Positions 1-29,063 are shown, numbered from the stretch's first letter. The stretch: 64,000 bases of DNA from Candidatus Moraniibacteriota bacterium (GCA_026396275.1 JAPLXC010000002.1:10618-74617); one strand, 5' to 3'. Translations and numbers: made by a program. The notes: generated by a model not told the origin, from the sequence alone.

Positions 1-1794
1 GTCATTGTTACCGGCCCACACGCCGACTACCAATGACGGCGTATATCCTACCGTCCAGCCGTCCCGAAACTCATTGGTCGTGCCGGTTTTAACTGCCACC
101 GGGCGGTCATCAAAACGGAGAGGGCTGTTTGAGCCGAAAACGGGGGAGCGGTAATCATTGGTGGAAAGAATATGGTCAATCATCGCCACGTATTTTTCTT
201 CAACCACTTTTTCTCCTTCTTCCTGCTTAAATTCTTCCAATACCTCGCTGTGGCTATCCTCTATTTTTAAAACCGCAGTCCGGGGATACCGAACACCTTT
301 GGTGGCTAATGTTCCAAAGGCGCTGGCGTGATCAATGAGCTTTACTTCCCCTCCGCCCAGCACCAGTGAAAGACCATAGCGTTCCGGCTGGTTCAGCCCG
401 GTAATTCCCATTCGTTTGGCAGTAGCAATTGAGTCCTTAACTCCAGCCAGGTACAACGTCTCTACTGCCGGAATGTTGAGCGACATTCCCAGTGCCTCTT
501 TCATTTTGACCGGTCCTCGGAATTTCCCATCGTAATTTCGCGGCTTATATTCTTTTCCGTCCTGGGTCTCAAATTCCGTTTCCATGTCAAAAATCATCGT
601 TTCTGGAGTATAACCCTTGGCAAAGGCAGTAAGATAAACATAGGGCTTAAACGATGATCCCGGCTGGCGATCGCGAATAGCCACGTTTACCTGCCCGTCA
701 ATTGACTTGTCAAAATAATCCTTTGAACCCACCATGGCCAGAATTTGGCCGGTTTTAGTATCAAGAGCCACCAAGGCCGCGTTCTCCGCGCCCCATGCTT
801 TTTGGTTTTTTTCGGCTCCATCTCTCACTGCTTTTTCGGCAATCGACTGCTTTTCCCAGTCCAAAGTGGTATAAACCTTGAGTCCTCCTTGTTCTACTAC
901 CTGCTGTCCGTATTTTGACTCCAGATATTCTTTCACGTACATAACAAAATGGGGGGCATCAATTCGCTCGCGATAGGGAAAAACTTTGCCAAGCACATCG
1001 GTTTTTTTGGCCTCCTCAGATTGATCCTGGGTGATGTATCCCAAATCCACCATTCTTTTCAGTGCCGCTTCCTGCCTTTTTTTCAGTTCCTCAAAATGAG
1101 ATCCGTATGGCGAGTAATAGGTCGGCGCCTTGGGAAGAGCCGCCAGGAGCGCTGCTTCATCAAGAGTCAGCTCCCGAGCGGGTTTTCCGAAATAAGTTTG
1201 CGCTGCCGCTTCAATGCCATAAGCGTTGGAACCGAAAGGAATTTCATTTAAATACATTCCCAAAATCTCATCCTTGGAAAATTTTTGCTCTATCTCAATG
1301 GCTAAAATCACTTCTTTGACTTTGCGAGTCAAAGTCCGCTCGGGGGAAAGAATGGAGTTTTTCACAAATTGCTGGGTTATAGTTGACCCTCCCTGCATCA
1401 CGTCCTGGCGCAAAATATCTTTCATGGCCGCCCGAATAATGGAGGAAAGTTTAATACCGCGATGGGAATAAAAATCCTGGTCCTCAAGAACAATGGTTGC
1501 GTATTTCACCGTATCCGGAATTTCAGAAAAAGAAATAAGAGTCCTTTTTTCTTCTCCATGAACTTCATAAAGAAGATGCTCGCCAGTGCGGTCATAAATT
1601 TTAGTGGATTCAATGATGACTCTTCTGTTTACTTTTCCAGGACTAGGCAGGTCCTTGGCAAAATAGATGAAGGTTCCGGCGACAACGAGAAAAACAAGGC
1701 CAGCCAGATAACCAGCCGCTCTTCCCGCCATTTTCCAGTGCTCTCGGGCGGAAAGGTTTTTGAAATTTTTTACGAAAATGAAGGTGGGTTTCAT
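1..1794 (-). CDS. Class A penicillin-binding protein (GT51 transglycosylase + transpeptidase), C-terminus runs off the window
   Basis: Minus-strand translation from the ATG at 1792-1794 gives MKPTFIFVKNF with a TM anchor, then ATIVLEDQDFYSHRGIKLSS (the GT51 EDxxFxxHxG motif) at about 1441-1500. The window edge encodes GWTVGYTPSLVVGVWAGNND, the transpeptidase C-terminal region. Not in the track because no stop falls inside the window. Confidence 0.85.
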   Translation of the reverse strand, partial: MKPTFIFVKNFKNLSAREHWKMAGRAAGYLAGLVFLVVAGTFIYFAKDLPSPGKVNRRVIIESTKIYDRTGEHLLYEVHGEEKRTLISFSEIPDTVKYATIVLEDQDFYSHRGIKLSSIIRAAMKDILRQDVMQGGSTITQQFVKNSILSPERTLTRKVKEVILAIEIEQKFSKDEILGMYLNEIPFGSNAYGIEAAAQTYFGKPARELTLDEAALLAALPKAPTYYSPYGSHFEELKKRQEAALKRMVDLGYITQDQSEEAKKTDVLGKVFPYRERIDAPHFVMYVKEYLESKYGQQVVEQGGLKVYTTLDWEKQSIAEKAVRDGAEKNQKAWGAENAALVALDTKTGQILAMVGSKDYFDKSIDGQVNVAIRDRQPGSSFKPYVYLTAFAKGYTPETMIFDMETEFETQDGKEYKPRNYDGKFRGPVKMKEALGMSLNIPAVETLYLAGVKDSIATAKRMGITGLNQPERYGLSLVLGGGEVKLIDHASAFGTLATKGVRYPRTAVLKIEDSHSEVLEEFKQEEGEKVVEEKYVAMIDHILSTNDYRSPVFGSNSPLRFDDRPVAVKTGTTNEFRDGWTVGYTPSLVVGVWAGNND

Positions 1795-1838: not shown

Positions 1839-2795
1839 TTAAACATTAAGTCTGCTTTTGAATATTCTTAATAATTCTTTATACAATTTAACCATGTACG
1901 GTTTTTCATTTGGGGTAAAAAATAGACCCGGCATTGAATTCAATTCCACTACCCAGGGCTTTCTCTTTTTGTCAAACATAAAATCAATGGAAAACACTCT
2001 CGGTTCAAAAGTTTCAAAAATTTTATTGGCGTAGTTTACCGCCGCAAAAACTGATTTGGGAATCTTTTTAAACGGTATAATTTTCAGTGTTCCGCCCTGG
2101 GCGAGATTAGCCAGCAAATTTCCTTTCTTGGGCTCGCGAATGTAAGCATAAATCACTTTATTATTTACAAAAACTAATCGAAGATCATGATAATAATTAC
2201 TTACACCGGGAACGCCAAAAGAAGAATCAATAAACTCCTGGGCAAGATAAACTTTGTCTAAAAGAGCTTTGGAAATTGCTTCTTTTTTATTTAGTATTTG
2301 TATATCCTTACCGCCACTTTCCAAAAGGGGCTTTAGAACGACTTTATTAGTTTTTATTTTTGGCAAAACCTTCCTTAATTCTTCCTTGTTATTCACCAGC
2401 CAGCATTTTTTGCTCCATTTTTCGAAAAAAAGACTGGTGATAAATTTGTCGTCAACGAGCTGGGTAAATTGCAAATCATTAATGAATGGATAATTTTCTT
2501 CGATTAGTTCTTTTTTATAATAGACTTCGAGGCGAGCTTTTGTTTTGTCATAAATCAAATCCGGTTTCAAATTTTTTACCTTTTTCCATTTTGCTCCTTC
2601 ACCCTCGAAAACCCAGGCGTACCTAAAAATATTCTTTTGGTAATCATACCACTCGTAGGAGGCGCGATATATCTGAATCCCATTTATTCTGCAAAGATTA
2701 TAAAAATACTCGTAAGAATATTGATATTGCTTGTTTTTAAATGGTTTAGCAGATCGCCAATCACTTTTGCCGAATAATATTAAAACTTTTTTCAT
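1839..2795 (-). CDS. ATP-grasp family ligase (RimK/YheCD-like)
   Basis: 318 aa. ATP-grasp signatures: KVVLKPLLESGGKDIQIL and a C-terminal VVELNSMPGL (E-x-N...PG). First of three consecutive ATP-grasp genes. Confidence 0.55.
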   Translation of the reverse strand: MKKVLILFGKSDWRSAKPFKNKQYQYSYEYFYNLCRINGIQIYRASYEWYDYQKNIFRYAWVFEGEGAKWKKVKNLKPDLIYDKTKARLEVYYKKELIEENYPFINDLQFTQLVDDKFITSLFFEKWSKKCWLVNNKEELRKVLPKIKTNKVVLKPLLESGGKDIQILNKKEAISKALLDKVYLAQEFIDSSFGVPGVSNYYHDLRLVFVNNKVIYAYIREPKKGNLLANLAQGGTLKIIPFKKIPKSVFAAVNYANKIFETFEPRVFSIDFMFDKKRKPWVVELNSMPGLFFTPNEKPYMVKLYKELLRIFKSRLNV

Positions 2796-2868
2796 ACTTT
2801 TCTGTCGTCTATTTATATTAACTACGACTTAGACCAACAACGTAAAGGTCTATATATAACAAAATTAG

Positions 2869-3852
2869 TTATTTAATCTTTAGCTTGGGGAAAAGATTTT
2901 TCAATATTTTTCCTGAGACATCAATTCCGGCTCCTTCTACTAAGGGACTCTCGCTCATATTGTAAAATGGATTAGAGTTTATTTCCAAAATGACATAATT
3001 TTTTTTCGAAGAAAGATTATTGGTCATCAAATCCACGCCTCCCCACGAAAGTCCGGATGCCTGGATAGATTTTACGCAAGTTTTTTTAAGAAATGCGCTC
3101 ATTTTATTGGTGCTTTCAATGGCTCTTCCGCCATCAGACATATTGAGATTATCTCTTAGCTTAAGCTTGGTATTTTTTATTAGTATGCTGTTTAAAGTAA
3201 GGTTATTTTTAGAGAGCGTTTTCTTAGCTACCTTGTCTATTTTTATCTCAAATCCTTTTTTTCTCTTTTTATTAAAAATGTTTACGAGCTCTTGAATTGT
3301 AGAAATACCATCACCCACAATGGTTGCTGGGATTTTTTTCACACAGGAAATAACCTCTCCATCAAAAACTAAGACTCGATATTCATCCCCGATATACATC
3401 TCTTCGATTAGAAATTTGTCGGATCGCAACCACTTTCTAATCTCACGACTATTAATAAGACGAACGGCTGTTTTTAGCTCTTTTTTTGATCGTACATTCC
3501 AAGTTACCCCCTTGGCACATGTTCCGTCAATCGGCTTGGCAATGAACGGATATTTTATTTTTTCTTTTCGGATTAAATTTATTGCCTCGCCATAGGAACT
3601 GGCTACAATCCCTTTGGGAGTTCGTATGTCCATAAGACCAAGAATTGTTTTAGTTAGATCTTTATTAACAACCAATCTGGCCGGATGGACCGACAATGGG
3701 ATAATTCCCATGCGAGAAAAAATAACGTCCTCTCCCAAATAAAATTTTACTAAAGAAAATCGGCCAGGATAAAATTTTACCTTAATTCCTAATTCCAGCG
3801 CTCTTTTGACAAGAGAAGCAAATCCTCCATGAGCTATTTCTTTTTTAATCAT
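2869..3852 (-). CDS. ATP-grasp ligase, cyanophycin-synthetase N-terminal-like / RimK-like
   Basis: 327 aa. YPFIAKPIDGTCAKGV, TIVGDGISTIQELV (cyanophycin-synthetase-like) and VILEINSNPF are ATP-grasp motifs. Starts 17 nt from the upstream gene. Confidence 0.6.
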   Translation of the reverse strand: MIKKEIAHGGFASLVKRALELGIKVKFYPGRFSLVKFYLGEDVIFSRMGIIPLSVHPARLVVNKDLTKTILGLMDIRTPKGIVASSYGEAINLIRKEKIKYPFIAKPIDGTCAKGVTWNVRSKKELKTAVRLINSREIRKWLRSDKFLIEEMYIGDEYRVLVFDGEVISCVKKIPATIVGDGISTIQELVNIFNKKRKKGFEIKIDKVAKKTLSKNNLTLNSILIKNTKLKLRDNLNMSDGGRAIESTNKMSAFLKKTCVKSIQASGLSWGGVDLMTNNLSSKKNYVILEINSNPFYNMSESPLVEGAGIDVSGKILKNLFPKLKIK

Positions 3853-3869
3853 CTGGCTGTTTATAAATT

Positions 3870-5318
3870 TTATTTATTCACATCAACTAAAAATTTTCCT
3901 AAATTTCTCTTTCCTATGATTACGGGATATTTTAAATGAGACCGTTCAATTATGGAAATTTTAGCAGGAATAACCTTCTCGCCTATCATAATATCTATTT
4001 TCACCATTGGACGATAAGTTGTTCCGTGTGATGAATGGATAATGGCCGTGTCAGCTAAATCCGGTATTTCTTTAAGAAGCTGCTCTTTATTTTGATTGTC
4101 AATTTCTCTTGCTTTTTCAGGAGTTAACAGATCAGGAAAGTTTTTCCTTTGAAACTTTTCCATTACTTCTTTAAATCCTAATTGTTCTGCAATATCCTTA
4201 TCAATGGAAGAAAATCCGGCTCCAGTATCAATTCGCGCTTCCACTTCAACTTCCTTTTCCTCTTTTCCAATTAATTTTACTTTTTCAACCGTGCCAATAA
4301 CTTTTCTTCCGGAAATATCCTCGATCTCGCCTTCAATTTCTCCTCCGAAAAGGTTCATTCCGACCCGGATTCCCCGCTCGGCGGTTTTAATTTTTATATC
4401 TGCGATTCTTTCCAATCTCCTTTTCAAGCCCGCGAGATTGGCGATTTGAATGGAAAGACCCGGTCGGGCGTTGAGTTCCAGAAAAACCGGACCGCGCTCG
4501 CGATCAATAGCAATATCGGCTCCTAAAAATCCTAATCCTGAAATCTCTTGAGTACGGACTGCCAACTTCAGAATATCATTCCAGTAGGGAATTTTGATTC
4601 CTGATAAAAGCAGGCGAGTGTCCGGAACATACTCAATGATTTTCCCTTTTCCTAAAACGGCAGTGGTAGTTACGCCGGAAGCTAAGTCAATCCCGACGCC
4701 AATTGCCCCTTGTTGGAGATTGGCCTTACCTTGCGATTCCTTAGTAGGAAGCCGGAGCATTGCCATTACCGGAACTTTGTTATAGACAATTACCCGGATA
4801 TCGGGAATTCCCCGATAAGCGTAGGGCTTGAATAGTTTGAGAAGCTGAAGACGCTCTTCAAAAAAAGCCGTGTCGGGAATATTGGAAAGAGAAAATGAAC
4901 CATCAATGATATTACGAATGTGATTTTTCAGGTCCTCAATGGTAACTAACGATCCATCTGCTTTAATCCAGGTATCTTCCAGTTCCCCGCCTGCATCCTG
5001 TCCGGGGTAGGAAGCATCGCGGGCAGGCTTTTTCTTTCCATAAACAACCAGAATTCCCTCGCCGCCAAATCCGCGGTTGGGCTTCAAAGCGAAACTCGTC
5101 GGTAGGATGCTCCAGTCAAATTTTTCCAGATCCTCAAGAGTTGTTATTCTGGCAATCAGTCGGGGAACAGGAATTTCATTCTTTTTTAAAATTCTCTTAC
5201 TTAGAATCTTGTTATCAGCTATCCGCTTGGCTTTTTTGAGGTTAAAAGGGCGGATGTACTGAAGATTGCGGGAATTCATTCCCAAGATCTGGCCGGTTTT
5301 TCGAAAAAACTTGAACAT
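3870..5318 (-). CDS. Fusion of an alpha-L-glutamate-ligase-like ATP-grasp (RimK-related) with a C-terminal retropepsin-like Zn_protease (PF05618/COG4067) domain
   Basis: 482 aa. N-terminal approx. 330 aa has ATP-grasp motifs (FALKPNRGFGGEGILVV; VFLELNARPGL). C-terminal approx. 140 aa (ARIDTGAGFSSID ... HGTTYRPMVKIDIMIGEKVIPAKISIIERSHLKYPVIIGKRNL) matches the DTGA-containing retropepsin-like domain usually encoded next to rimK. Domain assignment is from recall, not a search. Confidence 0.6.
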   Translation of the reverse strand: MFKFFRKTGQILGMNSRNLQYIRPFNLKKAKRIADNKILSKRILKKNEIPVPRLIARITTLEDLEKFDWSILPTSFALKPNRGFGGEGILVVYGKKKPARDASYPGQDAGGELEDTWIKADGSLVTIEDLKNHIRNIIDGSFSLSNIPDTAFFEERLQLLKLFKPYAYRGIPDIRVIVYNKVPVMAMLRLPTKESQGKANLQQGAIGVGIDLASGVTTTAVLGKGKIIEYVPDTRLLLSGIKIPYWNDILKLAVRTQEISGLGFLGADIAIDRERGPVFLELNARPGLSIQIANLAGLKRRLERIADIKIKTAERGIRVGMNLFGGEIEGEIEDISGRKVIGTVEKVKLIGKEEKEVEVEARIDTGAGFSSIDKDIAEQLGFKEVMEKFQRKNFPDLLTPEKAREIDNQNKEQLLKEIPDLADTAIIHSSHGTTYRPMVKIDIMIGEKVIPAKISIIERSHLKYPVIIGKRNLGKFLVDVNK

Positions 5319-5321
5319 AAT

Positions 5322-5972
5322 TTATAGTTTTTTAAACACTTCCCGAAAACGCAGGTATTCAATCAAGCGTAGTCCAGTCCATTTCCCCAAAAATATATTA
5401 ATTAAAATTACAAGCAAAACAATCCAAGGGAAAGAGATAATTAGGATTCTTAAAAGCTCCCACTTTGCCAGATAATACCCTCCCAGAGAAATAAGGAGTG
5501 TTTCCAGCGCCAGAATAAAAGCTGTTCTGTTTCCTTTTTCAATCTGGGCCGCTACGAATTTTTCTACAATGGTGATCATAATAAGTAAGGGAAAAATGGA
5601 AACGGCGGCGAGACCCGTCCGATGCTGCGATCCTCCAACGACTAAAATTCCCAAGATTGCCAAGGCAACGATGCTTAATGTTATTGCTACTCGAGGCAGA
5701 TAAAGTATTCTTAATTTTTTTAGCAGGTAACGAACCAGCATTCCGACTAAAATGACGCTCACGAAAATAGCAATTCCGTATTTCAGTCCGGTTGCTAAAA
5801 AAGCAAAAATCACGATCGAAGGAGTATAAATGCCGAAGGCCTTAATTCCCACTACCTGGCGGAGAAAGGCAATGAGGGTGGCGATGATCGGAAACATCAG
5901 CAGAAGAATCACGGTATCAAGCGGAACACCTTGGGAGATAAAATATTGAGTAATTGGGCTGATATTATTCAT
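5322..5972 (-). CDS. 7-TM membrane protein; likely the 7TM partner of RimK-like ATP-grasp systems (7TM_transglut-like)
   Basis: 216 aa. Seven hydrophobic helices read by eye. Starts 4 nt after the ligase-protease fusion gene and shares its strand. Confidence 0.5.
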   Translation of the reverse strand: MNNISPITQYFISQGVPLDTVILLLMFPIIATLIAFLRQVVGIKAFGIYTPSIVIFAFLATGLKYGIAIFVSVILVGMLVRYLLKKLRILYLPRVAITLSIVALAILGILVVGGSQHRTGLAAVSIFPLLIMITIVEKFVAAQIEKGNRTAFILALETLLISLGGYYLAKWELLRILIISFPWIVLLVILINIFLGKWTGLRLIEYLRFREVFKKL

Positions 5973-6098: not shown

Positions 6099-6587
6099 CT
6101 ATCTATCTAGATTCTTGAACTTTCTACTATGTATATGGCATATGGCAATCGCCAGCGCGTCAGCAACATCATCCGGTTTGGGAATTTGTTTCAGCTTCAA
6201 AATATTTTTCACCATTAATTGAACCTGCCTCTTTTCCGCCCGGCCGTAACCAGTAATCGCTTGTTTCACCTGGAGCGGCGTGTATTCAGCAATTCTAATT
6301 TCTTGCTTTTCCAAAGTCAAGAGAATGGCGCCTCTGGCTTGGCTGACTTTCACTGCGGTCTTCAGATTTTTAAAAAAGAAAATATCTTCAACGGCCGACT
6401 CCTGAGGATTATATTTTTTTATAATTTTTTCAATGTCTTTGCTTATTTCTTTAAGCCGTTCGGCCGTTTGTTTTTTCGAGGATGTGCTAATGTGCCCCCA
6501 GGCGTCAGGAGTCAATCTCCCTTTATTTTCAGAAATAACAGCCCACCCCACTGTTGCCGTACCCGGATCTATCCCCAGTATTTTCAT
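6099..6587 (-). CDS. ruvC: Holliday junction resolvase RuvC
   Basis: 162 aa. MKILGIDPGTATVGWAV at the N-terminus; typical RuvC size. Confidence 0.9.
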   Translation of the reverse strand: MKILGIDPGTATVGWAVISENKGRLTPDAWGHISTSSKKQTAERLKEISKDIEKIIKKYNPQESAVEDIFFFKNLKTAVKVSQARGAILLTLEKQEIRIAEYTPLQVKQAITGYGRAEKRQVQLMVKNILKLKQIPKPDDVADALAIAICHIHSRKFKNLDR

Positions 6588-6601: not shown

Positions 6602-7354
6602 TTATAAATTATCAAAGATTTCTTGAACATCGTCTTGGTTATCAAGCGCTTCCAAAAGTTTTTCATAGTCCAGCTTTGTATCCTGATCTAAAGAAATTTT
6701 CTGAAGCGGGGCAAATACAAGACCGGCGTTTTCAATTGATACTTTATGCTTTTCTAAATGTTCTTTTACTTTCTGTAACTCTTCTGATTTCGTAAAAACC
6801 GTTAAAGTTCCGCCGGAATAAATTATGTCTTCTGCGCCTGCTTCAATGGCTTTCAATTCCAGCTCATATGGGTCTTCATCAGCTCCTACTGGAATATTAA
6901 TATTTCCCACTTGCTTAAAAAGATAACTTACTGAACCAGCGGGGACTAATTTGCCTCCGGCTTTAGTTAAAATATTTTTTAACTCTCCGAGTGTCCGATT
7001 TTTATTATCCGTCGCGGTTTTAATGAGCATTGCCACCTGCCCGGAACCACCCGCCTGCTGTACGGGCAGGTAGGCCTCATAAATTACTTCTTCCACTGTT
7101 TCGCCTTTAAGCTCGCCGGTTCCTCGCTTGATAGCCCGCTCAATATTTTCCTTCGGCATGTTAACACTTTTGGCTTGGTCAATGGCTAACTTTAATTTCC
7201 AGTTTGTTTCCGGATTGCTCCCGCCTTCCCGAGAAGCAATGGAAATTGCCCGTCCGAATTTGGTAAAAACATTCGCTCGCTTGGCATCCGTTATCGCCTT
7301 TTTATGTTTTATTCCCGCCCAATGGGAGTGACCTGACATATGATCATGAAGCAT
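6602..7354 (-). CDS. yebC: YebC/PmpR family transcriptional regulator
   Basis: 250 aa. MSGHSHWAGIKHKKAITDAKRANVFTKFGRAI is the conserved YebC N-terminus. Confidence 0.9.
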   Translation of the reverse strand: MLHDHMSGHSHWAGIKHKKAITDAKRANVFTKFGRAISIASREGGSNPETNWKLKLAIDQAKSVNMPKENIERAIKRGTGELKGETVEEVIYEAYLPVQQAGGSGQVAMLIKTATDNKNRTLGELKNILTKAGGKLVPAGSVSYLFKQVGNINIPVGADEDPYELELKAIEAGAEDIIYSGGTLTVFTKSEELQKVKEHLEKHKVSIENAGLVFAPLQKISLDQDTKLDYEKLLEALDNQDDVQEIFDNL

Positions 7355-7544: not shown

Positions 7545-9500
7545 TCACCAACTGGAAATTAATAGAATTGCTTTATTAATAAAGAAGTTTATCTCTGTTC
7601 CTAAGTTTTTGAAAAATTTTACTGCGTAGTGTTCTTCTTCCAAAATCGGAGAAGTGAAGGTGTAAATATTTTCCTCGCTTCTGACCGTTTTGGCACCCAA
7701 AACTCTGCCTTGGTTACCCTGAACATAGCTGGCCAGTTTAATATTCGTCCCATAATTGAATAGCTCGTTTTGTTTTTCCTCGCCGGATAAATCCTCCGAC
7801 TGCCCGTCCATAAATTCTTCAAAATCTTCTTCTTCAATGACTTCATTTTCCTGTGTTTCTGTTTCTACGTTTTCTTGTTCTTCTGTTTTTATGTTTTTTG
7901 GTGATTTGATCCACTGCCATCCGCTTTCCATCTTTTTGTAAACCTCGTTTTCCTCCGCTTTTTTCCCGTCCTTGTCATATTTAACTTGATAAGCTTTTTT
8001 GCCATCCGGATAGCGCAATTCTACTTTTCCTTTTTCATTATTAAGAGCAAAGCTCACGTATTTTCTGGTGATTATTCTTTCTTCTCCCGGACTAATACTA
8101 AAATCGTCCTTGATCCAATGATTGTAAAGTTTTTTGGACCCGGTGGCGATGCTCCAGCTTTTGAGATTGATTTCGTCATCCGAATAGTTTTTAACTGATA
8201 CCCATTCATTCTTGCTATCATTGCCGACGGGATTTGGGCAGATTGATTTTATCTTTACTTTATCGCGGGGAAATTTTTTGACTTTAATCTTAAAAGTTTC
8301 AATTTTTTCTTCACTACCATCAAATATCTTGAGAGTCACTTTGTATTTCCCGGCCTTTTCGTATTTGTGCTTCGTTTCCTTTTTGTAACTCTTGTGGCCA
8401 TCCCCAAAATCCCAGGTGTATTTTAACTTATCTTTATCCTTGTCCTTGGCTTTGGCGGAAAATTCGGCATAGACCCCGACATAAATTTTTTTGTCATTCT
8501 TGGACTTGGAATCAGGCAATTGATTAAATTTATTTTCTTCCCCGGGAGTCAAAAACCGGCTCCAGCGCCAAGACGCGCCGTCGAAATTGTAAGAAACACC
8601 TTCTTTGGCACTTCCCTTATATTCAACTGAGGAAACTGGGATTTTGTCCTGTGGATTATAAAGTTTTAAGATCTCTCCACTAGTATCATTAAGAGCAAGC
8701 TCACAATTTGTATTGCCTTTTCCGATTAGTAAAAAACCATTGCCTGAAATTTCTTTTCCGGAAAGATCGCATTTCTTGCCGGCTCGGTCTTCAATCCGCC
8801 AATTAGTTAATTTTTCAAGCTTATCACTGGAATTATACAGTTCAACAAATTCGTCTTGCGTCAGAGGATCATTCGGATGAGGATATATCTCATTTATACT
8901 GATTTTTTCCGTGTATACTTTTGGTTTTGAAGCTTTCTTTCCCGGTGTTCCTCCAGGATCATAGCTTTCCTGCCAGTTATAACTATTTTCCATTCTTTCA
9001 ATACTGTAATTTTTTATTGGATTTGAGAGATTATATGAACATTTTTGGGAATTTCCCCAACAAATTAAATCAATAACATCAACGTTTTTAGTCGCCGAGG
9101 TACTGATATATACCGCTCCGTTTGAAACAAGTGAAGCGGAATAAACCGTACCGATCGTCGTTTCTTGTTTATATTTTTCATAATAATCAACGGAGGAGAT
9201 CAGATAATAGTTCCCCGCTTCAATAATAGAATTTTTGAAAGAAAGCGTTTTATTAGTATCGGTTCCAGCGGAATTAACAATATGCAGTTTTAAGGGTAGG
9301 GTCTGCAGATTAATATCGTCATCGGTTGGATTGAACAGTTCAATAAATTCCTCGTTGGCTGAATTGGTGCCGATTAAAACTTCAGAGATAATTAATTGAT
9401 TAAAATTTTTCGCCAGAATAGGTTGGGAAAAACCAAAAAATCCCGCTGTAAGCAGGATTGAAAACAAAAATAAATTTACTTTTGTATTTTTGTTTTTCAC
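7545..9500 (-). CDS. Secreted surface protein with two lamin-tail (LTD) domains and a PKD domain
   Basis: 651 aa. N-terminal signal peptide. LIISEVLIGTNSANEEFIELFNPT and INEIYPHPNDPLTQDEFVELYNSS are LTD signatures. YTWDFGDGHKSYKKETKHKYEKAGKYKVTLKIFDG is a PKD signature. Lys/Asp-rich linkers. Confidence 0.6.
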   Translation of the reverse strand: MKNKNTKVNLFLFSILLTAGFFGFSQPILAKNFNQLIISEVLIGTNSANEEFIELFNPTDDDINLQTLPLKLHIVNSAGTDTNKTLSFKNSIIEAGNYYLISSVDYYEKYKQETTIGTVYSASLVSNGAVYISTSATKNVDVIDLICWGNSQKCSYNLSNPIKNYSIERMENSYNWQESYDPGGTPGKKASKPKVYTEKISINEIYPHPNDPLTQDEFVELYNSSDKLEKLTNWRIEDRAGKKCDLSGKEISGNGFLLIGKGNTNCELALNDTSGEILKLYNPQDKIPVSSVEYKGSAKEGVSYNFDGASWRWSRFLTPGEENKFNQLPDSKSKNDKKIYVGVYAEFSAKAKDKDKDKLKYTWDFGDGHKSYKKETKHKYEKAGKYKVTLKIFDGSEEKIETFKIKVKKFPRDKVKIKSICPNPVGNDSKNEWVSVKNYSDDEINLKSWSIATGSKKLYNHWIKDDFSISPGEERIITRKYVSFALNNEKGKVELRYPDGKKAYQVKYDKDGKKAEENEVYKKMESGWQWIKSPKNIKTEEQENVETETQENEVIEEEDFEEFMDGQSEDLSGEEKQNELFNYGTNIKLASYVQGNQGRVLGAKTVRSEENIYTFTSPILEEEHYAVKFFKNLGTEINFFINKAILLISSW

Positions 9501-10103: not shown

Positions 10104-10325
10104 TTAGAGATTTAAGTTGGAAAATATTTCATCCCACCGCAGGGATAAAAACAGCATCAGGTTGGAAAAAAGAAGCGCGCCGAACACGGAAAGGAAAATA
10201 GTCAATGTTAAAACCATCACGCTTTTGCTAAAAGAATACTTGATAACGTGATAAACAATAAAAAGCGCGGCGATAGTGAAAAATAAAAAAAGGATGAGAT
10301 AGAAAATTCCAAAAATAGCGATCAT
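10104..10325 (-). CDS. Small two-TM membrane protein, hypothetical
   Basis: 73 aa, entirely hydrophobic, packed 9 nt downstream of the bPH gene. Confidence 0.3.
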   Translation of the reverse strand: MIAIFGIFYLILFLFFTIAALFIVYHVIKYSFSKSVMVLTLTIFLSVFGALLFSNLMLFLSLRWDEIFSNLNL

Positions 10326-10385: not shown

Positions 10386-10468
10386 AGTACTAATATACGA
10401 ATTTCAATTATGCCTAAGAAGGGTTTTGATAATTAGTATATTCGTATATGATTCGTAGTTCGTAGAGA
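10386..10468. repeat. TACGAAT/ATTCGTA heptamer cluster (inverted arms around a spacer) directly 3' of ruvB
   Basis: agtactaatatacgaattt ... ttagtatattcgtatatgattcgtagttcgtagag. One of seven similar clusters at gene boundaries. Confidence 0.55.
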
Positions 10469-11479
10469 TTACATCAGTTTTTGCTGATGATTACTGGGCA
10501 ACTTATGCCCCAAATGCCGAAAAGCGTTTTCGGTGACAACGCGCCCGCGGGGAGTCCTGGCTAAAAAGCCAATCTGAATGAGATACGGCTCAAATACATC
10601 TTCAATTGTTTGAATTTCCTCGGATGTCGCCGCCGCGATGGTCTGCACTCCCACCGGGCCTCCGTTGAATTTTAGAATTATTGTTTCCAGAATATGCCGG
10701 TCAATCAGTTCCAAGCCCACATCATCAATGTCCAACATTTTTAACGCCTGGCAGGTAACTTCGGCTGTTATCACATCGTGGTTGCTAATTTGAGCAAAGT
10801 CGCGCACGCGCTTTAGAATCCTGTTAGCCACCCGGGGGGTCTGCCGGCTGCGGACCGCCATTTCCCTGGCTGCGTCATTTTCCACATTCACGTCCAATAT
10901 CTTGCTGGAGCGATTAATTATTTTTTGAATTTCCTCCTCACCATAAAAGTCTAGACGGTGGATGATGCCGAACCGGTTGCGCAATGGATTGGAAATAGCG
11001 CCTAATCGGGTAGTGGCGCCAATCAAAGTAAAATGGGGAAGTTCCAGCTGAAGTGTGCGCGCTGATGGGCCCTTGCCGATGATTATATCAAGCTTGTGAT
11101 CCTCCATTGCTGGGTAAAGCACTTCTTCAATTAATTTATTAAGCCGGTGTATTTCATCAATAAAAAAAATATCTCCATCCTGAAGATTGGTAAGAATTGA
11201 TCCCAGATCTCCTACCCGCTCAATCGCCGGACCGGAAGTGATCTTGATGCTCGCTCCCATTTCCTTGGCAATAATGTAGGCCAGGGTTGTTTTCCCTAGT
11301 CCTGCCGGGCCGTAAAGGAGAACGTGTTCGATTGGCTCGCCGCGTTTTTTGGCTGCTTCAATGACAATTCGCAAATTTTTCTTTACTTTTTCCTGCCCGA
11401 CGTATTCAAAAAAGCTATTGGGCCGAAGCGTAGTGTCCAGTTTAACATCCTCAATTTTCTCACTGGAATTGGTGATCAT
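10469..11479 (-). CDS. ruvB: Holliday junction branch-migration helicase RuvB
   Basis: 336 aa. Walker [20 protein letters not shown]; full AAA+ and winged-helix layout. Confidence 0.92.
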
Positions 11480-11851
11480 AAGCTGATGTAGATTTGTTCC
11501 TTAATTACCCGTTATTTGACCCCATATTAGAGAGTATACTACGATTTGACAAACTTTGAAAGTCGTGCTAAACTGGTCTGTCATCTGTAAATATGCGCTT
11601 TTGGGTGCAATTTCCGATGACTAGCAGTAAGCTGTAGACAATTGGTGGTGACTATCTTTTGCCATCAATTCAGGGAACTTTCTTGTCCAGATATGGGTGC
11701 AGGGGTTTCGGCTCTTGTTCTCCTCGACATTGTTCTCTCCCTGGGGATCACATTTCCAGGATTGTCTACAGATTAGTGATATATTCATGAAGCATGAAAC
11801 ATGCAACATGAAACAAATTAAAAAAGTTTTTTAACAAAGGAGGGAAGAAAG

Positions 11852-12019
11852 ATGGAAACGAGGTATTTAATTCAAATAATGATAACTTTCTTGGTTGGAG
11901 CGACTGTTGTTGGCTTTTCGGCTATCACAGGGATTTGGCATCCAAATAACCCTTGGGTTTTTGCTAGCGCGATGGCAATTGGGGGATTTGTTGGTTTTAT
12001 TGTTATTCCTATTTTCTGA
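11852..12019 (+). CDS. Small (55 aa) two-TM membrane protein, hypothetical
   Basis: ATG preceded by aaggagggaagaaag (RBS). Translates to METRYLIQIMITFLVGATVVGFSAITGIWHPNNPWVFASAMAIGGFVGFIVIPIF. Absent from the track because it is under 60 aa. Confidence 0.35.
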   Translation: METRYLIQIMITFLVGATVVGFSAITGIWHPNNPWVFASAMAIGGFVGFIVIPIF

Positions 12020-12049
12020 ACAAAAGTTTTGAGGAAGGAGGAGAAGACA

Positions 12050-12394
12050 ATGAAAATTGTTATTCTTGTGGGACTTTCAATATTAGCAGTAGGAGCTATT
12101 GGAGCAGCGATCAAATTCAGGAAAGACAAACTCGGGCTAGTGTTATTAATTCTTATGATTATAGGAGCTGCTGCAACATCCTTTGGTTTTTTAGCACTAG
12201 GTAAGCAAGACGGTTATTTGACATTACAAAATGAGTTGACAAAAGAAGTTGACCTCAACAAAGTTCCCATTAAAGGATACCATTCGTCTAATGCTAAAAT
12301 AACGATTGTTTACAAGGATGGTGAGATTGAAAAGGTTTTCCTGGTTAAAGGAACGACGGTCGAGGCGACAAAGAAATATCAACCCGGAGAATAA
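12050..12394 (+). CDS. Membrane-anchored hypothetical protein
   Basis: Start re-set to MKIVILVGLSIL behind the RBS gaggaaggaggag. Two TM helices, then a soluble beta-rich tail. Confidence 0.45.
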   Translation: MKIVILVGLSILAVGAIGAAIKFRKDKLGLVLLILMIIGAAATSFGFLALGKQDGYLTLQNELTKEVDLNKVPIKGYHSSNAKITIVYKDGEIEKVFLVKGTTVEATKKYQPGE

Positions 12395-12902: not shown

Positions 12903-15900
12903 TTATTCTTCCGTTACTCTCTCCACTTCCTCCAATGTCGTCTCGCCTTCCAAAACCTTAAGGATCCCGTCCTGCTGCATAGTGAGCATTCCGTTTTCAA
13001 TGGCTTTGTCGCGGATGTGGGTGGAAAGTTCGTTAGCATAAATCATTTCCTGGACGGCTTTGTCAATTACTAAGACCTCACTCACAGTGGTACGGCCTTT
13101 GTAGCCGATGCCGTTGCATTTGGCGCACCCTTTGGGCTTGTAAATGTAACTTCCGGGGGGAATTTTTACTCCCGCTTTGGGTGAAATTGACTTAATAATA
13201 TTTTTTATCTTTTCTTTTTCTTCCGCGGTGGGCTTAATTTTTTCCCGGCACTCACAAAGTTTTCGCACCAGCCGCTGCGCCATAAATCCATTGGCGGCGG
13301 TGGCTAAATCATCGGTTCTCACTCCCATATTGAGAAGGCGGGGAATAGCGCCGGGCGCGTCATTGGTATGCAAAGTTGATAAAACCAAATGTCCAGTGAG
13401 CGCCGATTGAACAGCGATGCCGGCTGTTTCCTCATCGCGGATTTCACCAATCATCATAATGTCGGGGTTTTGGCGAAGAAGCGAGCGCAGGGCCGTGGGA
13501 AAAGTGTATCCTTCTTTGTCACTAACCTGTGTTTGTAAAATCCCCGTCAGCTGGTATTCAATCGGATCCTCCACGGTGATTACTTTAACTTCGGGTTTAT
13601 TGAGCACCCGCAGCAAACTGTAAAGCGTCGTTGTTTTTCCGGATCCGGTGGGACCGGTATTGAGAAAAAATCCATTGGGCTTTTTGATTTCATGAAGGAT
13701 TTTATCCAGATTTTGTTTTCTGATCCCCAGTTTATCAACATCCAGCGCCACCGCTCCCCGATTGAGAAGGCGCATCACGACTGTTTCTCCGTAGCCGCCT
13801 AAAATTATGGAAACGCGCACGTCCACTTTTATTTCAGTTATATTTTTAAACGGCCGGTCTATGGCTATGGAAAAACGGCTGTCTTTTACTCCTTGGCGAA
13901 GTTCAGCTTTAAGCCCGGAAAGTATTTTTATCTCTCCTAAAAATGTCGGGTATTCATTGAGGGGAATCCGCCCGATGGTTTGCAAAATCCCGTCAATGCG
14001 AAGGCGCACCAAGACCTCTTTCTCTTCCGGCTCGATATGAATATCGCCGGCGGAAAGCAAAAGCGCCGCCGCGATAACGTAGCGCAGAGCGTCTTTTTGA
14101 TTAGCGCCTTTCAAAAACTCGGCGAATTTTTCGAAGGAGGATGTATTTTTAGAAACCTTTTCCAAATCTTCTTGAGGTATTTCGATCGCCCGGGAAAGCG
14201 ACTGCTCCATTAATTTTTCATAAATCTCTTCAAGGAATTCGGTTTGCCCCGTCACCCGCCATACCTCTTCCAGTGAAGTGATTCCCTCAATGGCTTTCAT
14301 GATCCCATCTTGCGCCATAGTTATCATGCCTTCTTCCAAAGCGGCTTGAGTTATTTCTCCTTCGCTGGCCATGTTTAAAATAAGTTTTTCGATTGATTCG
14401 CTCATGGTGAGAACCTCGAAAACTCCGATTCTCCCCCGATATCCCAGATTATGGCAACGGGGGCAACCTTTTGGCCGATATAATTGAAGGATATCTTTGG
14501 GGATTTCCATTTTTGACTTCGGGGAGATTATCGCCAGAATCTTTTTGATTGAGTTGGCTGTTTCCTTGGCGGGCTGATAGACCTCCCGGCAGTGAGGACA
14601 AATTTTTCGCACCAGGCGCTGGGCGATAAGAGCGCTCACCGCTGGAGCAATAAGGTTGGGTTTGACTCCCAATTCTATCAGGCGCGGAACAGCGCCAGCC
14701 GCGCTGTTGGTGTGAATCGTGGAAAGCACCAGATGCCCAGTTAGTGCGGCGTTAAGGGCAATGTCGGCCGTTTCTTCGTCGCGGATCTCGCCAACCAGAA
14801 TCACGTCCGGATCCTGTCGCACTATCGCCCGCAATCCCTTTTCGAAAGTGTACCCCCGGCTCTTGGACACCTGCGTCTGGGAGATTCCTTTTATTTCATA
14901 TTCCACCGGGTCTTCAATAGTTATTATTTTCACTCCCGGTACATTGATCCGGTTAAGAACGGCGTAAAGCGTTGTGGTTTTCCCGGATCCGGTGGGGCCG
15001 GTGTTGAGAATCATCCCATGGGGCTTTTCTGTCTGTTTTTGCACTTGCTCATAAGCTAGTCCCCGCAATCCCAGTTCCTCAACTCTCAAGAGGACATCGG
15101 CTTGATTGAGAAGACGCATCACGATGCTCTCTCCGCGGTTTCCGGGAATGATGCTGACGCGGATATTGATTAGCCCGTTTTCCAGATTGACATTGAAGTG
15201 CCCGTCCTGGGCAATATCACGGATGTTGAGTTTCATTCCTCCCATCATTTTCACCCGCGATATGATGAAGCGGTAAATATCCAGAGGCAGATATCCGACA
15301 TCCTGCAGAACTCCGTCCAGGCGATAGCGCAGACGCACTTCTTCTTCCTGCGGCTCAAAATGAATGTCGCTGGCTTTCATCTTCACCGCCCCGGCCATAA
15401 TGGTAGTGATAATCTGGGTGGTGGGAATTTCCCGGATCCTTTTTTTGAGTTCCAGCAGATCCTTGAATTCCCTTTCAAATTCTTCAAGGTCTTTTCCGCT
15501 AAGAGACAGGCGGAGAGCGTCCAGATTTTCCAAAAGCGGTGTCTCTTTATACTTATTCAGGGCTTTGCTAAGCGAAGAAAGCGAAACGACATAAAGGCGG
15601 ATGTTCCAACCATTTTCTTGCTGAAGTTTTTTGACGTAATCCAGTGTTTCACGGCTTCCGGGATTGGTCAGCGCCAGCCGGATGTTTTTCCCAGCTTTCT
15701 GAAAGACGGCCACTTGAAAACGGCGCGCCTCCTCTTCGGGAAGAGAGCGAAGCTCATCGCCGCTCAAAGGAAAGAGATTGAGATCAACGTAAAAAAGATT
15801 GTGTTTTTTGGCCAGCGCCGCGGCTTGTTCTTCTTCCGATTCCTTACGCATTCGCCGCAGGACTTGAGACGCCCTGATATCTTTTTCTTTATCAGCCGGC

Positions 15901-15950
15901 AGTGTTTTGCGGAAAACTTTAACCATAGAGTTACGACTATTGTACCGCAT
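12903..15950 (-). CDS. pilB: Tandem-fused double GspE/PilB-type secretion/pilus assembly ATPase
   Basis: 1015 aa = two complete GspE modules. Each has an N1 domain, Walker A (LNTGPTGSGKTTTLYAVL / FLNTGPTGSGKTTTLYSLL), Walker B (DPDVILVGEIRD / NPDIMMIGEIRD), a His box (LTGHLVLSTIHTN / LTGHLVLSTLHTN) and a C4 zinc knuckle (CPHC..CPRC / CECRE..CAKC). Confidence 0.85.
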   Translation of the reverse strand: MRYNSRNSMVKVFRKTLPADKEKDIRASQVLRRMRKESEEEQAAALAKKHNLFYVDLNLFPLSGDELRSLPEEEARRFQVAVFQKAGKNIRLALTNPGSRETLDYVKKLQQENGWNIRLYVVSLSSLSKALNKYKETPLLENLDALRLSLSGKDLEEFEREFKDLLELKKRIREIPTTQIITTIMAGAVKMKASDIHFEPQEEEVRLRYRLDGVLQDVGYLPLDIYRFIISRVKMMGGMKLNIRDIAQDGHFNVNLENGLINIRVSIIPGNRGESIVMRLLNQADVLLRVEELGLRGLAYEQVQKQTEKPHGMILNTGPTGSGKTTTLYAVLNRINVPGVKIITIEDPVEYEIKGISQTQVSKSRGYTFEKGLRAIVRQDPDVILVGEIRDEETADIALNAALTGHLVLSTIHTNSAAGAVPRLIELGVKPNLIAPAVSALIAQRLVRKICPHCREVYQPAKETANSIKKILAIISPKSKMEIPKDILQLYRPKGCPRCHNLGYRGRIGVFEVLTMSESIEKLILNMASEGEITQAALEEGMITMAQDGIMKAIEGITSLEEVWRVTGQTEFLEEIYEKLMEQSLSRAIEIPQEDLEKVSKNTSSFEKFAEFLKGANQKDALRYVIAAALLLSAGDIHIEPEEKEVLVRLRIDGILQTIGRIPLNEYPTFLGEIKILSGLKAELRQGVKDSRFSIAIDRPFKNITEIKVDVRVSIILGGYGETVVMRLLNRGAVALDVDKLGIRKQNLDKILHEIKKPNGFFLNTGPTGSGKTTTLYSLLRVLNKPEVKVITVEDPIEYQLTGILQTQVSDKEGYTFPTALRSLLRQNPDIMMIGEIRDEETAGIAVQSALTGHLVLSTLHTNDAPGAIPRLLNMGVRTDDLATAANGFMAQRLVRKLCECREKIKPTAEEKEKIKNIIKSISPKAGVKIPPGSYIYKPKGCAKCNGIGYKGRTTVSEVLVIDKAVQEMIYANELSTHIRDKAIENGMLTMQQDGILKVLEGETTLEEVERVTEE

Positions 15951-26136: not shown

Positions 26137-27285
26137 CTAGCTTTTTATTGGCATAACTACATAGGCGTATTCTTTCACGGCTTTTTTTGTTTCATCACCC
26201 ATCATTTGAAGAAGAGCAGGTGAAGAATTATTATTAACGGAAAGCGCCAAAGAATAGGTGTTAATGGAATTAATTCCGTCCAGGATGTAACGGGGATTAA
26301 ATACAATTTCTTGATCCGGGCCGGATACTTCCGCGCGCAACTGACTTTTATTTTCTCCCGCTTCTTCTGATTGCGCCTGAATAACGACTTTTTTGTTTTT
26401 GGAATCAATTTTAAAATTTACCTCTCCGGATTTGCCGTGAGTGAAAATACTGGCTACTTTTACCGCCCGGGATAATTCTTCTTTACCAAGATACGCCCGA
26501 GTAGCGAATTCTTTTGGAATTATGTGTTTGTATTCCGGATATTTCCCGTTAATAAGACGGGACACAACCTTAATGGAATCAACCTGGAAGAAAATCTGGT
26601 TCTCTCCGATAGCAATTTTTACTTCCTGGGTTTCGTTGCCAATGATCCGCAATACTTCCGCAAAGGCCTGAGCCGGAATAATGAGTGAATTCACCTTGGA
26701 CATAAATACCGGATATTTTCCGTCTTTTTCCTGCTTTACGGGAAGAATAGCTTCGGCCAGGCGAAAACTGTCAGTGCCGGCTAAATGAATCTCCTTCTCA
26801 AAAAATAGCACGTTCACTCCGGTAAGTTCCGGCCTGGCATTGTCGATTGAAACGCACACAAGCAGTTTTGAAATTATATCCCTTAATTTCTGGGCAGGGA
26901 GAGAAAATAGAAAATCTCCTTCTAATTCAGGAATAATGGGAAATTCTTGGGCGCCCAGTCCTTTAATTTGAGCGTCATACTCTCCGCTAGATATTTTTAA
27001 AATAGAATTTTTAACTTCCAAGGAAATAGTGTCACTAATCGGCAAATTACTGACAAACCCACTAATAAGTTTAGCTGGGACTGTTATTTTTCCTTCTTTT
27101 TCTATTTTTGCTCCTATTTTTAATGATACTCCAATTTCTAAATTAGTAGCTGAAGCTTTCAACATGCCTTTTTCCGTCTCCAATAAAATATTTTCCAGAA
27201 TTGGAAGGGTTATTTGCCTTCCCACTACTCGCTCTGTGTTGTATATCGCTTTTTTAAAATTTTCCTGAGTGCAAATTAATTTCAT
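26137..27285 (-). CDS. dnaN: DNA polymerase III beta sliding clamp
   Basis: 382 aa, three-domain clamp. N-terminal MKLICTQENFKKAIYNTERVVGRQITLPILENILLE. Confidence 0.9.
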   Translation of the reverse strand: MKLICTQENFKKAIYNTERVVGRQITLPILENILLETEKGMLKASATNLEIGVSLKIGAKIEKEGKITVPAKLISGFVSNLPISDTISLEVKNSILKISSGEYDAQIKGLGAQEFPIIPELEGDFLFSLPAQKLRDIISKLLVCVSIDNARPELTGVNVLFFEKEIHLAGTDSFRLAEAILPVKQEKDGKYPVFMSKVNSLIIPAQAFAEVLRIIGNETQEVKIAIGENQIFFQVDSIKVVSRLINGKYPEYKHIIPKEFATRAYLGKEELSRAVKVASIFTHGKSGEVNFKIDSKNKKVVIQAQSEEAGENKSQLRAEVSGPDQEIVFNPRYILDGINSINTYSLALSVNNNSSPALLQMMGDETKKAVKEYAYVVMPIKS

Positions 27286-28957: not shown

Positions 28958-28980
28958 ATGTTTTAGAAAACACGATTGTA

Positions 28981-29063
28981 TTATGCACAAGAAAGTATAT
29001 CACGGTCAAGTTGTTCACACCAGTCAAATTAGTTCATAAACTTGTTTATAATATGTGAATAAG
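28981..29063. promoter_or_regulatory. DnaA-box cluster in the dnaA promoter/leader
   Basis: ttatgcaca (28981-28989, fits TTATNCACA), ttgttcaca (29011-29019) and tgtgaataa (29055-29063, reverse complement of TTATTCACA). Confidence 0.45.

Follow-up and report, generated by a model that had tools for sequence, protein, structure and literature searches.

What is built by a cluster of genes that encodes three ATP-grasp ligases, one of them fused to a retropepsin-like peptidase, and a small membrane protein? This question is raised by positions 1,839 to 5,972 of a 64,000-nt stretch of DNA from Candidatus Moraniibacteriota bacterium (GCA_026396275.1 JAPLXC010000002.1:10618-74617), which as a whole is called the window here. 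Open reading frame (ORF) calls and translation show that four co-directional, tightly spaced ORFs on the minus strand fill this interval exactly, as had been read from the sequence alone in the original prediction, and all domain assignments made there were upheld by a search with the Pfam and NCBIfam hidden Markov models (HMMs). In the direction of transcription the genes encode a seven-transmembrane (7TM) protein of 216 aa, a ligase-retropepsin fusion of 482 aa and two further ligases of 327 and 318 aa. Judged by its protein families, the locus represents the Rlo (RloA/B/C) system in a Patescibacteria version, to which lineage-specific ligases have been added. Only the fused ligase belongs to the core; the other two are members of a rapidly exchanged accessory slot. 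New in comparison with Rlo are a ligase-protease fusion with reversed order of domains, the 7TM protein without ectodomain, the hypervariable slot and the presence throughout a clade of the Patescibacteria. A neighbourhood of three genes for PF14397 ATP-grasp, PF14400/PF14402 and PF05618 proteins was reportedly noted by Iyer et al. in 2009. With regard to the product, a cassette for the ligation and trimming of peptides at the membrane, as originally proposed, is still the best explanation. We favour, tentatively and at somewhat less than even probability, a membrane-docked machine for the synthesis and trimming of an acidic peptide rich in Glu, which the accessory ligases would diversify and whose probable destination is the envelope.

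The rloABC operon was defined in P. aeruginosa by Lormand et al. (mBio 2025, PMC12239564). RloA is one of three redundant retropepsins (the others being RloA2 and RloA3) and is secreted, RloB consists of an inactive transglutaminase and a 7TM part, and RloC is a cytoplasmic ATP-grasp protein (PMC12239564). RloA cuts stretches of at least 8 Glu; in an AlphaFold2 (AF2) model its residues K46, R114 and R137 contact poly-Glu, and mutation of R114 or R137 leads to the loss of cleavage and of complementation in vivo (PMC12239564). An rloA1-3 triple mutant dies by lysis in hypo-osmotic medium and has beta-lactam, biofilm and cell-shape defects, and deletion of rloB or rloC suppresses the defects of this mutant (PMC12239564). 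Of the matches to RloB, 96% are in Proteobacteria (PMC12239564). Mutants of the RloB family in Shewanella over-produce vesicles (PMC12096838). Another retropepsin, RimB, cuts poly-alpha-Glu, provided that no fewer than 5-6 Glu stand in a row (Little et al., JBC 2025, PMC11957791). It stimulates the synthesis of poly-alpha-Glu by RimK and also trims the polymer, and there is a proteolytically active RimB-RimK hybrid carrying RimB N-terminally, found mostly in Flavobacteriales and Rhodobacterales (PMC11957791). The earlier statement that no substrate had been defined for such arrangements is therefore partly outdated, as genetics and biochemistry of rloABC and of RimB/RimK show cleavage of poly-alpha-Glu (PMC12239564, PMC11957791); it holds for the physiological substrate of Rlo.

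The ligase domain of the fusion matches PF14397 (ATPgrasp_ST) with 4.5e-65 (220 bits, cut-off 31.4) and TIGR02291, named 'alpha-L-glutamate ligase-like', with 3.7e-81, where its 272.6 bits stay under the curated cut-off of 314.2. The RimK model TIGR00768 gives 43.6 bits against a cut-off of 143.4. NCBI has the exact fusion protein under P0001, with the title 'RimK/LysX family protein [Candidatus Moranbacteria bacterium]'. Conservation was judged from an alignment of the window protein with 78 homologues (79 sequences). Nineteen residues of the ligase domain are invariant in all 79 (K79, G83, G85, G86, G88, E154, R156, D173, R175, N180, K181, R189, K198, N200, D268, D272, E281, N283 and R285), and the ATP-grasp Lys, the Gly-rich loop and the Mg/ATP ligands (K79, G83-G88, D268, E281, N283) are all kept. 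An AF2 model of the fusion, with a predicted local distance difference test score (pLDDT) of 78.6, has an ATP-grasp followed by a beta-rich domain, and the top Foldseek neighbours of the ligase (ArgX/LysX, CphA1, RimK, PsnB, Ddl) confirm the ATP-grasp fold. By their conserved motifs, all three ATP-grasp amide ligases of the window are catalytically intact, and one of them, which appears to be of the RloC type, has a retropepsin covalently behind it. That they are not cell-wall ligases of the housekeeping type is borne out by the NCBIfam search: where the Ddl-type cut-offs are 243-500 bits, the four window proteins reach at best 11.9-41.4, and none of the four matches a Mur-ligase model. An assignment to the Ddl/Mur families was rejected because of these low scores.

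Residues 337-481 of the fusion match PF05618 (Zn_protease, 9e-13), and the best NCBIfam model is the retropepsin RloA3 (4.7e-12), while the RimB model reaches only E = 0.008. The peptidase motif DTGA is intact, as had been read from the sequence: D364, G366 and A367 are invariant in the 79 sequences and position 365 is Thr in 78 of them. Also invariant are K/R362, R436, R459 and G469. The basic residues lie in the contexts A-[KR]-x-DTGA, RP and (D/E)RS, and the DTGA, RP and (D/E)RS motifs could be aligned with the weak PDB sequence matches 9g58, 9g59 and 2pma. K/R362 stands two positions before the catalytic Asp, like K46 before D48 in RloA, and R436 and R459 are 23 positions apart, like R114 and R137. 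We therefore equate K/R362, R436 and R459 with RloA K46, R114 and R137, an equivalence which follows from the motif alignment with solved homologues, the spacing and the published numbering, the RloA sequence itself lying outside the alignment. Ligase and retropepsin are fused in 78 of 78 full-length homologues. Thus the fusion, which had been taken as a clue to function, is real, but the RimB-RimK hybrid was already known, with the opposite order of domains and another ligase family. Neither a signal peptide nor a transmembrane (TM) segment was found in the retropepsin part of the fusion. It is without a signal peptide because it is fused behind an ATP-dependent ligase, and it is therefore probably cytoplasmic.

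Ligase and peptidase are connected by an acidic linker with the family consensus FGGEIEEE[LVI]E[ED]ISG, in which F324, G325, G326, E333, S336 and G337 are invariant. Residues 326-342 are disordered in the AF2 model (pLDDT about 29). Representatives that keep DTGA have 4.6 acidic residues per 14 and those without it 2.2, a difference which is confounded by phylogeny and by the scoring of DTGA with a regular expression, which may miss variants. The acidic linker might serve as a pseudo-substrate or tether. Self-cleavage by the attached retropepsin was also considered, given the conservation and disorder of the linker and its higher acidity in proteins with DTGA, and is unlikely: the window linker stretch EIEGEIED has no contiguous Glu and the family consensus has three, which is short of the needs of RimB and of RloA.

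The 216-aa protein belongs to PF14402 (7TM_transglut, 2.9e-31), and no match to a known transporter family was found, in agreement with the original view that it is not an unrelated transporter. On the NCBIfam model of RloB it covers only positions 308-507 of 508, with 81.9 bits against a cut-off of 900. The AF2 model (pLDDT 83.5, predicted template modelling score 0.79) has seven TM helices and a basic, amphipathic C-terminal helix. The positive-inside rule applied to the loops suggests that the N-terminus is outside and the C-terminus inside. The 120 closest homologues are all 199-224 aa long and match PF14402 only, PF14400 being absent from them. Ten charged residues are invariant (R38, K44, R94, R118, E137, K138, E145, E157, R202 and R208), and conserved charges are found within the helices. 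The ectodomain on RloB-type 7TM proteins is interchangeable: PKD repeats occur in a lineage of the candidate phyla radiation (L083, 1870-3420) and an inactive, transglutaminase-like ectodomain in the classical type (L086, 1757-3283), while the Moranbacteria 7TM protein has none.

Conservation of the gene neighbourhood carries the distinction between core and accessory genes. A scan of one genome per species found 260 relatives, of which the best 80 were analysed by tblastn mapping; almost all of these are annotated as Moranbacteria or Parcubacteria/Patescibacteria metagenome-assembled genomes (MAGs), and a few have other labels. The order yebC-ruvC-7TM-fusion-[variable]-PBP1A, the last being a class A penicillin-binding protein (PBP), is found in essentially every one of the 80 loci. 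The genes for the 7TM protein and the fusion are adjacent in all 80 wherever the contig includes that end, which bears out the expectation of a conserved neighbourhood, and wherever the contig of a Moranbacteria-type locus reaches far enough downstream, the PBP1A gene follows the cassette. Chance could by no means account for such an arrangement. Conservation is higher in the ligase domain than in RuvC, YebC and the PBP1A query (Table 1), and in genomes as reduced as these this argues for an important function.

Between fusion and PBP1A the picture is a different one. This interval measures 0.2-7.6 kb and grows in steps of about 1 kb, and 179 of the 184 ORFs within it are co-directional. Clustering together with the Pfam and NCBIfam searches yielded at least 10 ATP-grasp subfamilies in this slot, CphA G-domain-like proteins (13), Mur-fold ligases like the M domain of CphA (1e-61) and one full CphA-like gene (L046). 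Further slot families are MATCAP/QEGLA metallocarboxypeptidases, YdjC, GNAT, GT4 glycosyltransferases and DUF3541, alone or fused to a RimK-like ligase. In function these families form a coherent set. In 69 loci we counted 57 architectures, and 68 of the 69 slots hold at least one accessory ATP-grasp. The order of the window, a CphA-G-like gene followed by one of the 318-aa type, was seen in no other locus among those compared. Even locus pairs with 80-90% identical fusions seldom agree (one of 26 pairs shares its architecture; mean Jaccard 0.27), and L050 and L037, whose fusions are 88.5% identical, have no accessory family in common. Thus the three ligases that had been read as a triplication are indeed there, but their number is not a fixed feature, since two of them belong to the exchanged slot. 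We found no paper that links Moranbacteria with ATP-grasp proteins, or bacterial MATCAP with ATP-grasp.

Two slot families deserve a separate remark. DUF3541 recurs in L007 (10336-12132), L008 (10487-11455), L084 (902-2098) and L085 (12672-13607), as a free-standing protein, as a fusion with a RimK-like ATP-grasp (about 595 aa) or, divergent, beside a 7TM-ligase fusion. An HExxH-like motif marks proteins of about 460-640 aa in L006 (8829-10223), L054 (10889-12742) and L078 (about 10411-12339). No family was found for that of L054 in Pfam and NCBIfam, nor for that of L006 in Pfam; these proteins may represent a further family of peptidases.

The two accessory ligases of the window belong to different families. 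The 327-aa protein matches positions 211-473 of the 862 of the cyanophycin synthetase model TIGR02068 (1.6e-53, 182 bits, cut-off 850), and its PDB sequence matches are CphA1 (7wac, 1e-29), GshAB (3ln6) and 8fxh, a shorter ATP-grasp chain labelled 'RimK domain-containing'. It is homologous to the G domain of CphA, which extends the backbone, and to the C-terminal domain of GshAB. Its family is represented by only 13 ORFs of the variable region in related loci, and the ATP-grasp motifs are kept in these 13 members. The 318-aa protein is divergent. It matches RimK (PF08443, 5e-13) and TTL (PF03133, 3.3e-10), every NCBIfam score is far under its cut-off, and no PDB sequence relative was found. 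With 44 members, that of the window included, it represents the commonest accessory family, in which the K-P, DLR and E-x-N motifs are kept. The K-P, E-x-N and adjacent ATP-grasp motifs are kept in both families. Together with the residues of the fused ligase, this speaks for complete active sites in all three enzymes.

With genes like the G and M domains of CphA, and a full CphA-like gene in L046, one may think of an intracellular storage or osmolyte polymer, a poly-Glu or cyanophycin-like reserve of nitrogen, carbon or osmotic strength that the fused protease would remobilise; indeed, Glu/poly-Glu homeostasis has been discussed as an osmotic role of Rlo and Rim (PMC12239564, PMC11957791). 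A conserved 7TM partner would be superfluous for such a reserve, though, the turnover of ligase types at the strain level would stay unaccounted for, and the M-domain ligase needed for cyanophycin side chains is missing from most loci, so that we regard this explanation as very improbable. The least probable of the explanations weighed here is a small secreted peptide, an antibiotic or signal, for which L-amino-acid ligases of the stand-alone type would provide the synthesis and the 7TM protein the export. Antibiotics that are di- or oligopeptides are indeed made by stand-alone ATP-grasp ligases, the 327-aa protein weakly matches one L-amino-acid ligase (3vot), and tailoring genes, GNAT among them, vary greatly. 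However, the core is near-universal, highly conserved and set in a housekeeping neighbourhood, unlike sporadic biosynthetic clusters, immunity or regulator genes are not evident, and the conserved residues of the protease, which are predicted to bind poly-Glu, point to a polymeric acidic substrate.

In the membrane-docked machine that we prefer, the fused ligase would dock on the cytoplasmic face of the 7TM protein; other lineages have both as a single polypeptide. Using ATP, it would extend a carboxylate acceptor by glutamate or a similar acidic residue, one per step. The attached retropepsin, acting as a cytoplasmic dimer, would cut the growing Glu-rich chain and by this would set the chain length or produce primers, as RimB does for RimK. 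The accessory ligases could then add other residues at the C-terminal carboxylate: the CphA-G-like enzyme would extend the backbone, probably with Asp, and the RimK/TTL-like enzyme would add an amino acid. Through such additions the product would become a short hetero-oligopeptide or a branched poly-amino acid and not plain poly-Glu. Finally, the 7TM protein may pass the product outward or present a membrane or envelope acceptor. The stimulation of RimK by RimB and the suppression of the rloA1-3 defects by loss of rloB or rloC support a functional coupling of ligase and protease. A link to the envelope is supported by the rlo phenotypes, the vesicles of Shewanella and the GT4 and YdjC genes in the slot, and the fast exchange of the slot among close relatives makes it most likely that the product is a component of the envelope which is exposed and varies with the strain.

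The same enzymes could edit the C-terminal tail of a protein in the cytoplasm, in a RimK/RimB-like or 'tubulin-code-like' manner: the ligases would add Glu and other residues to, for example, bS6 or a division or envelope protein, the fused retropepsin, and MATCAP in relatives, would erase the tail, and the 7TM protein would only localise or regulate. This is how RimK and RimB act, and the RimB-RimK hybrid is active (PMC11957791). Protease and ligase share one compartment here, C-termini of proteins are the targets of ArgX/LysX and RimK, which are structural neighbours, the 318-aa ligase has its TTL-family match, and carboxypeptidases of the MATCAP family are met repeatedly, both in the slot and in fused form. 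The ligase, however, is best placed in the RloC family and not in that of RimK (TIGR00768, as above), and an obligate 7TM partner with charges inside the membrane, which elsewhere carries ectodomains, is hard to fit with a soluble target. A fast exchange of accessory ligases is unexpected if the target were a conserved housekeeping protein, and the window has no poly-acidic or acidic-tailed ORF. Altogether, we consider tail editing unlikely. As already noted in the original prediction, a gene for a precursor peptide is not evident either: neither such a gene nor a poly-acidic ORF was found among the 252 window ORFs of at least 50 aa.

Fusions in distant relatives were sought in an HMMER scan of 1.84 billion representatives, which yielded 2060 relatives, 426 of them at E <= 1e-30; the best 150 of the 2060 were viewed for their architectures and ten of these were checked with Pfam. 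Among these 150 we found the same ligase-retropepsin fusion (about 460-500 aa), triple fusions of ligase, (retropepsin) and MATCAP (about 780-816 aa, about 40 representatives), fusions of ligase and retropepsin with YdjC or with a second ATP-grasp, and RloC-like proteins without a fusion partner (about 300-330 aa). Lineages also exist in which the 7TM protein is fused N-terminally to the ATP-grasp (P0264, P0266, P0270). Through such fusions the 7TM protein and the accessory families are tied to the core ligase, and those of 7TM and ligase place the C-terminus of the 7TM protein in the cytoplasm. Many of the MATCAP triple fusions have no DTGA recognisable by the regular expression (P0140, P0144, P0155-P0156, P0159-P0160 and others) and a linker that is basic, not acidic, which suggests that the retropepsin was inactivated upon the addition of a carboxypeptidase. 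Two distant loci show the cassette in another context. L083 reads yebC-ruvC-[PKD+7TM]-[ligase+retropepsin+MATCAP]-three ligases-MATCAP-(tyrS, opposite strand)-PBP1A, and L085 reads yebC-ruvC-galT-7TM-[ligase+retropepsin+ligase]-RimK-DUF3541-RimK-ruvA-ruvB, with no PBP. The constant neighbour is thus yebC-ruvC, which precedes the cassette in the Moranbacteria loci and in both distant ones and is probably the trace of an insertion that the ruv cluster received long ago.

Does the PBP belong to the cassette? Its gene is the fifth co-directional one and starts 44 nt downstream of the 318-aa ligase gene. The translation holds a transglycosylase and a transpeptidase, and its homologues have PF00912, PF00905 and Big_7. 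This neighbour suggests a tailoring of peptidoglycan precursors, in which amino acids would be added to the stem peptide of lipid II together with the class A PBP, as side-chain or cross-bridge additions onto free carboxylates or amines in the manner of the enterococcal ATP-grasp D-Asp ligase. Terminator-like sites were found neither between the cassette genes nor between these and the PBP gene, PBP1A follows the cassette in all covered Moranbacteria-type loci and in L083, rlo mutants have cell-shape and beta-lactam phenotypes (PMC12239564), and genes of the Mur-ligase fold occur in the slot. However, the cassette of L085 lies between ruvC and ruvA/ruvB, and in L083 tyrS on the opposite strand separates it from PBP1A. 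The Mur-fold accessory proteins resemble the M domain of CphA and not MurC-F, the Ddl and Mur scores are all far too low, and an endopeptidase of the poly-Glu type has no obvious part in the chemistry of stem peptides. Precursor tailoring is therefore quite improbable. The adjacency of the PBP gene to which the original prediction pointed is true for the window, but it is lineage-specific and absent in L085; it is weak evidence for a cell-wall target, and L085 and L083 weaken PBP linkage as a functional clue.

Several findings weigh against the membrane-docked machine as we picture it. PBP adjacency is missing in L085 and interrupted in L083. A rapid turnover of accessory genes would also be expected of a secondary-metabolite locus. 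The logic of 'make inside, trim outside' is not directly transferable from Pseudomonas, because the protease is probably cytoplasmic here and secreted there. Also a horizontal transfer of the accessory genes, for which their content of guanine and cytosine (GC) gave a weak hint (33% in the 318-aa gene and 33-36% in the accessory genes, against 41-42% in the core genes), was not retained: GC falls just as low in other 1-kb stretches of the window, so that these values are unexceptional. A reading as a defence island was rejected because no PADLOC model gave a significant match with any of the four proteins.

The coordinates of the cassette, of the parts of the fusion and of the adjoining genes are collected in Table 1.

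Table 1. Features of the cassette and its flanks in the window, with median identities to the window among the related loci
Feature	Coordinates	Strand	Length, evidence or remark	Median identity
7TM gene, core gene 1	5972..5322	-	216 aa	67%
Ligase-retropepsin fusion, core gene 2	5318..3870	-	482 aa	
ATP-grasp ligase domain, residues 7-307	4398..5300	-	TIGR02291 / PF14397	71.5%
Acidic linker FGGEIEGEIEDISG	4308..4349	-	translation and homologue alignment	
Retropepsin-like domain, residues 340-481	3876..4301	-	PF05618, RloA3	52%
Catalytic D364-T-G-A	4218-4229	-	motif mapping	
Accessory ligase 1, CphA-G-like	3852..2869	-	327 aa	31-36% (best matches to the two accessory ligases)
Accessory ligase 2, RimK/TTL-like	2795..1839	-	318 aa	31-36% (best matches to the two accessory ligases)
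Class A PBP (PBP1A-type), fifth co-directional gene	1..1794	-	ATG at 1794; truncated by window start	68% (598 N-terminal residues in window)
yebC, upstream flank	7354..6602	-		57%
ruvC, upstream flank	6587..6099	-		64%

The gaps between the genes for the 7TM protein, the fusion, the 327-aa and the 318-aa protein are 3, 17 and 73 nt. Upstream on the same strand follow ruvC, yebC, a surface protein with Lamin-Tail-Domain (LTD) and PKD parts, a bPH_2 protein and ruvB. The exact window proteins are present in NCBI as Candidatus Moranbacteria MAG entries (P0001, P0278). The surface protein (651 aa, 7545-9500, minus strand) has three LTD stretches, a PKD domain and a hydrophobic N-terminus; it carries an acidic segment near the C-terminus, …EEQENVETETQENEVIEEEDFEEF…, and did not pass the poly-acidic filter. 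Its homologues lie between ruvB/bPH_2 and yebC in L081 and L082, the two relatives that were checked. An ORF of 73 aa (10104-10325, minus strand) is situated between the bPH_2 gene and ruvB, and at the equivalent position of L081 a gene of 73 aa without Pfam match had been called. An ORF of 126 aa on the plus strand (1462-1842), antisense to the PBP start and extending to the stop of the 318-aa ligase gene, is of low complexity and most likely spurious. Further away, a protein of 1015 aa (12903-15950, minus strand) has two T2SSE stretches (PilB/GspE-type) and MshEN, and is thus a tandem-duplicated ATPase of type IV pili or secretion; a homologue is found at the matching relative position in L081. 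The genes dnaN and dnaA are at 26137-28990 (minus strand), about 20 kb from the cassette, while in L081 they lie directly beyond PBP1A, dciA and trxB, so that the gene order of the origin region differs between these relatives.

Why does such a locus matter? In Pseudomonas, Rlo has effects on survival under osmotic stress, on the tolerance of beta-lactams and on biofilm. The version in Patescibacteria represents a natural minimal form, with ligase and protease in one polypeptide and the membrane partner pared down to the 7TM core. Together with the 7TM-ligase fusions found elsewhere, this gives testable subunit contacts and a simpler system for reconstitution. The accessory slot is a hot-spot of diversity not described before, and in this major uncultured clade it may determine how envelope chemistry differs from strain to strain. 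A bolder reading, which we consider doubtful, is that the 7TM protein and the ligase-protease core form a platform for template-independent peptide assembly and export that works without a non-ribosomal peptide synthetase, is reprogrammed by swapped ATP-grasp and Mur-fold ligases and MATCAP-type trimmers, and gives each strain its own surface polymer of acidic peptide or peptido-glycan. If this were true, ultra-small episymbiotic bacteria would possess an amino-acid-based counterpart of the variation of O-antigens and teichoic acids, and the product class of the Rlo systems of Pseudomonas and Vibrio, which has long been sought, would be revealed.

With Rlo the locus shares the same three protein families in a single co-directional cluster. 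Its ligase domain is 42% identical to the RloC protein (P0220, itself at 413 bits on TIGR02291) of an rloA-rloA-rloB-rloC operon on a metagenomic contig (L086), its 7TM protein matches the membrane half of RloB, and its peptidase, with DTGA kept, scores best to RloA3. It differs in the peptidase, which is C-terminal to the ligase, has no signal peptide and is probably cytoplasmic, whereas RloA is secreted, and in the 7TM protein, which has no inactive transglutaminase ectodomain (216 aa against about 508 aa). Furthermore, the core is followed by one to four additional genes for ligases or peptidases, which are rapidly exchanged, the hosts are Patescibacteria instead of mainly Proteobacteria, and every NCBIfam Rlo score of the window proteins is under the curated cut-off.

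The likeness to RimK/RimB lies in the pairing of an alpha-L-glutamate-ligase-type ATP-grasp with a retropepsin that is cytoplasmic, here by prediction, and cuts poly-alpha-Glu in the case of Rim; the RimBK hybrid is, like the window fusion, a covalent union of ligase and protease. However, the protease is N-terminal in RimBK and C-terminal in the window, the window ligase belongs to TIGR02291/PF14397 and not to RimK, the RimB model barely matches, and Rim has no 7TM partner. With the reversed order of domains and the different ligase family, the two fusions most likely arose separately. Cyanophycin synthetase is approached by the 327-aa protein, which aligns with its G domain, and by related loci that hold a separate ligase like the CphA M domain (1e-61) or a full-length CphA-like gene in the slot; the 327-aa protein is a G domain alone, without the N and M domains that the synthetase unites with it in a single chain of about 870 aa, and an M-domain gene is absent from the window. 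For the enzymes of tubulin tails (TTL/TTLL, MATCAP) no link to tubulin or FtsZ was found, there is no MATCAP gene in the window, and the similarity is one of families only. At this level it is nevertheless twofold: the 318-aa ligase matches TTL and peptidases of the MATCAP family (PF08014) occur in the slot of relatives or as fusions, and in both cases sets of ligases and peptidases stand together, which in the tubulin system add and remove residues on acidic tails.

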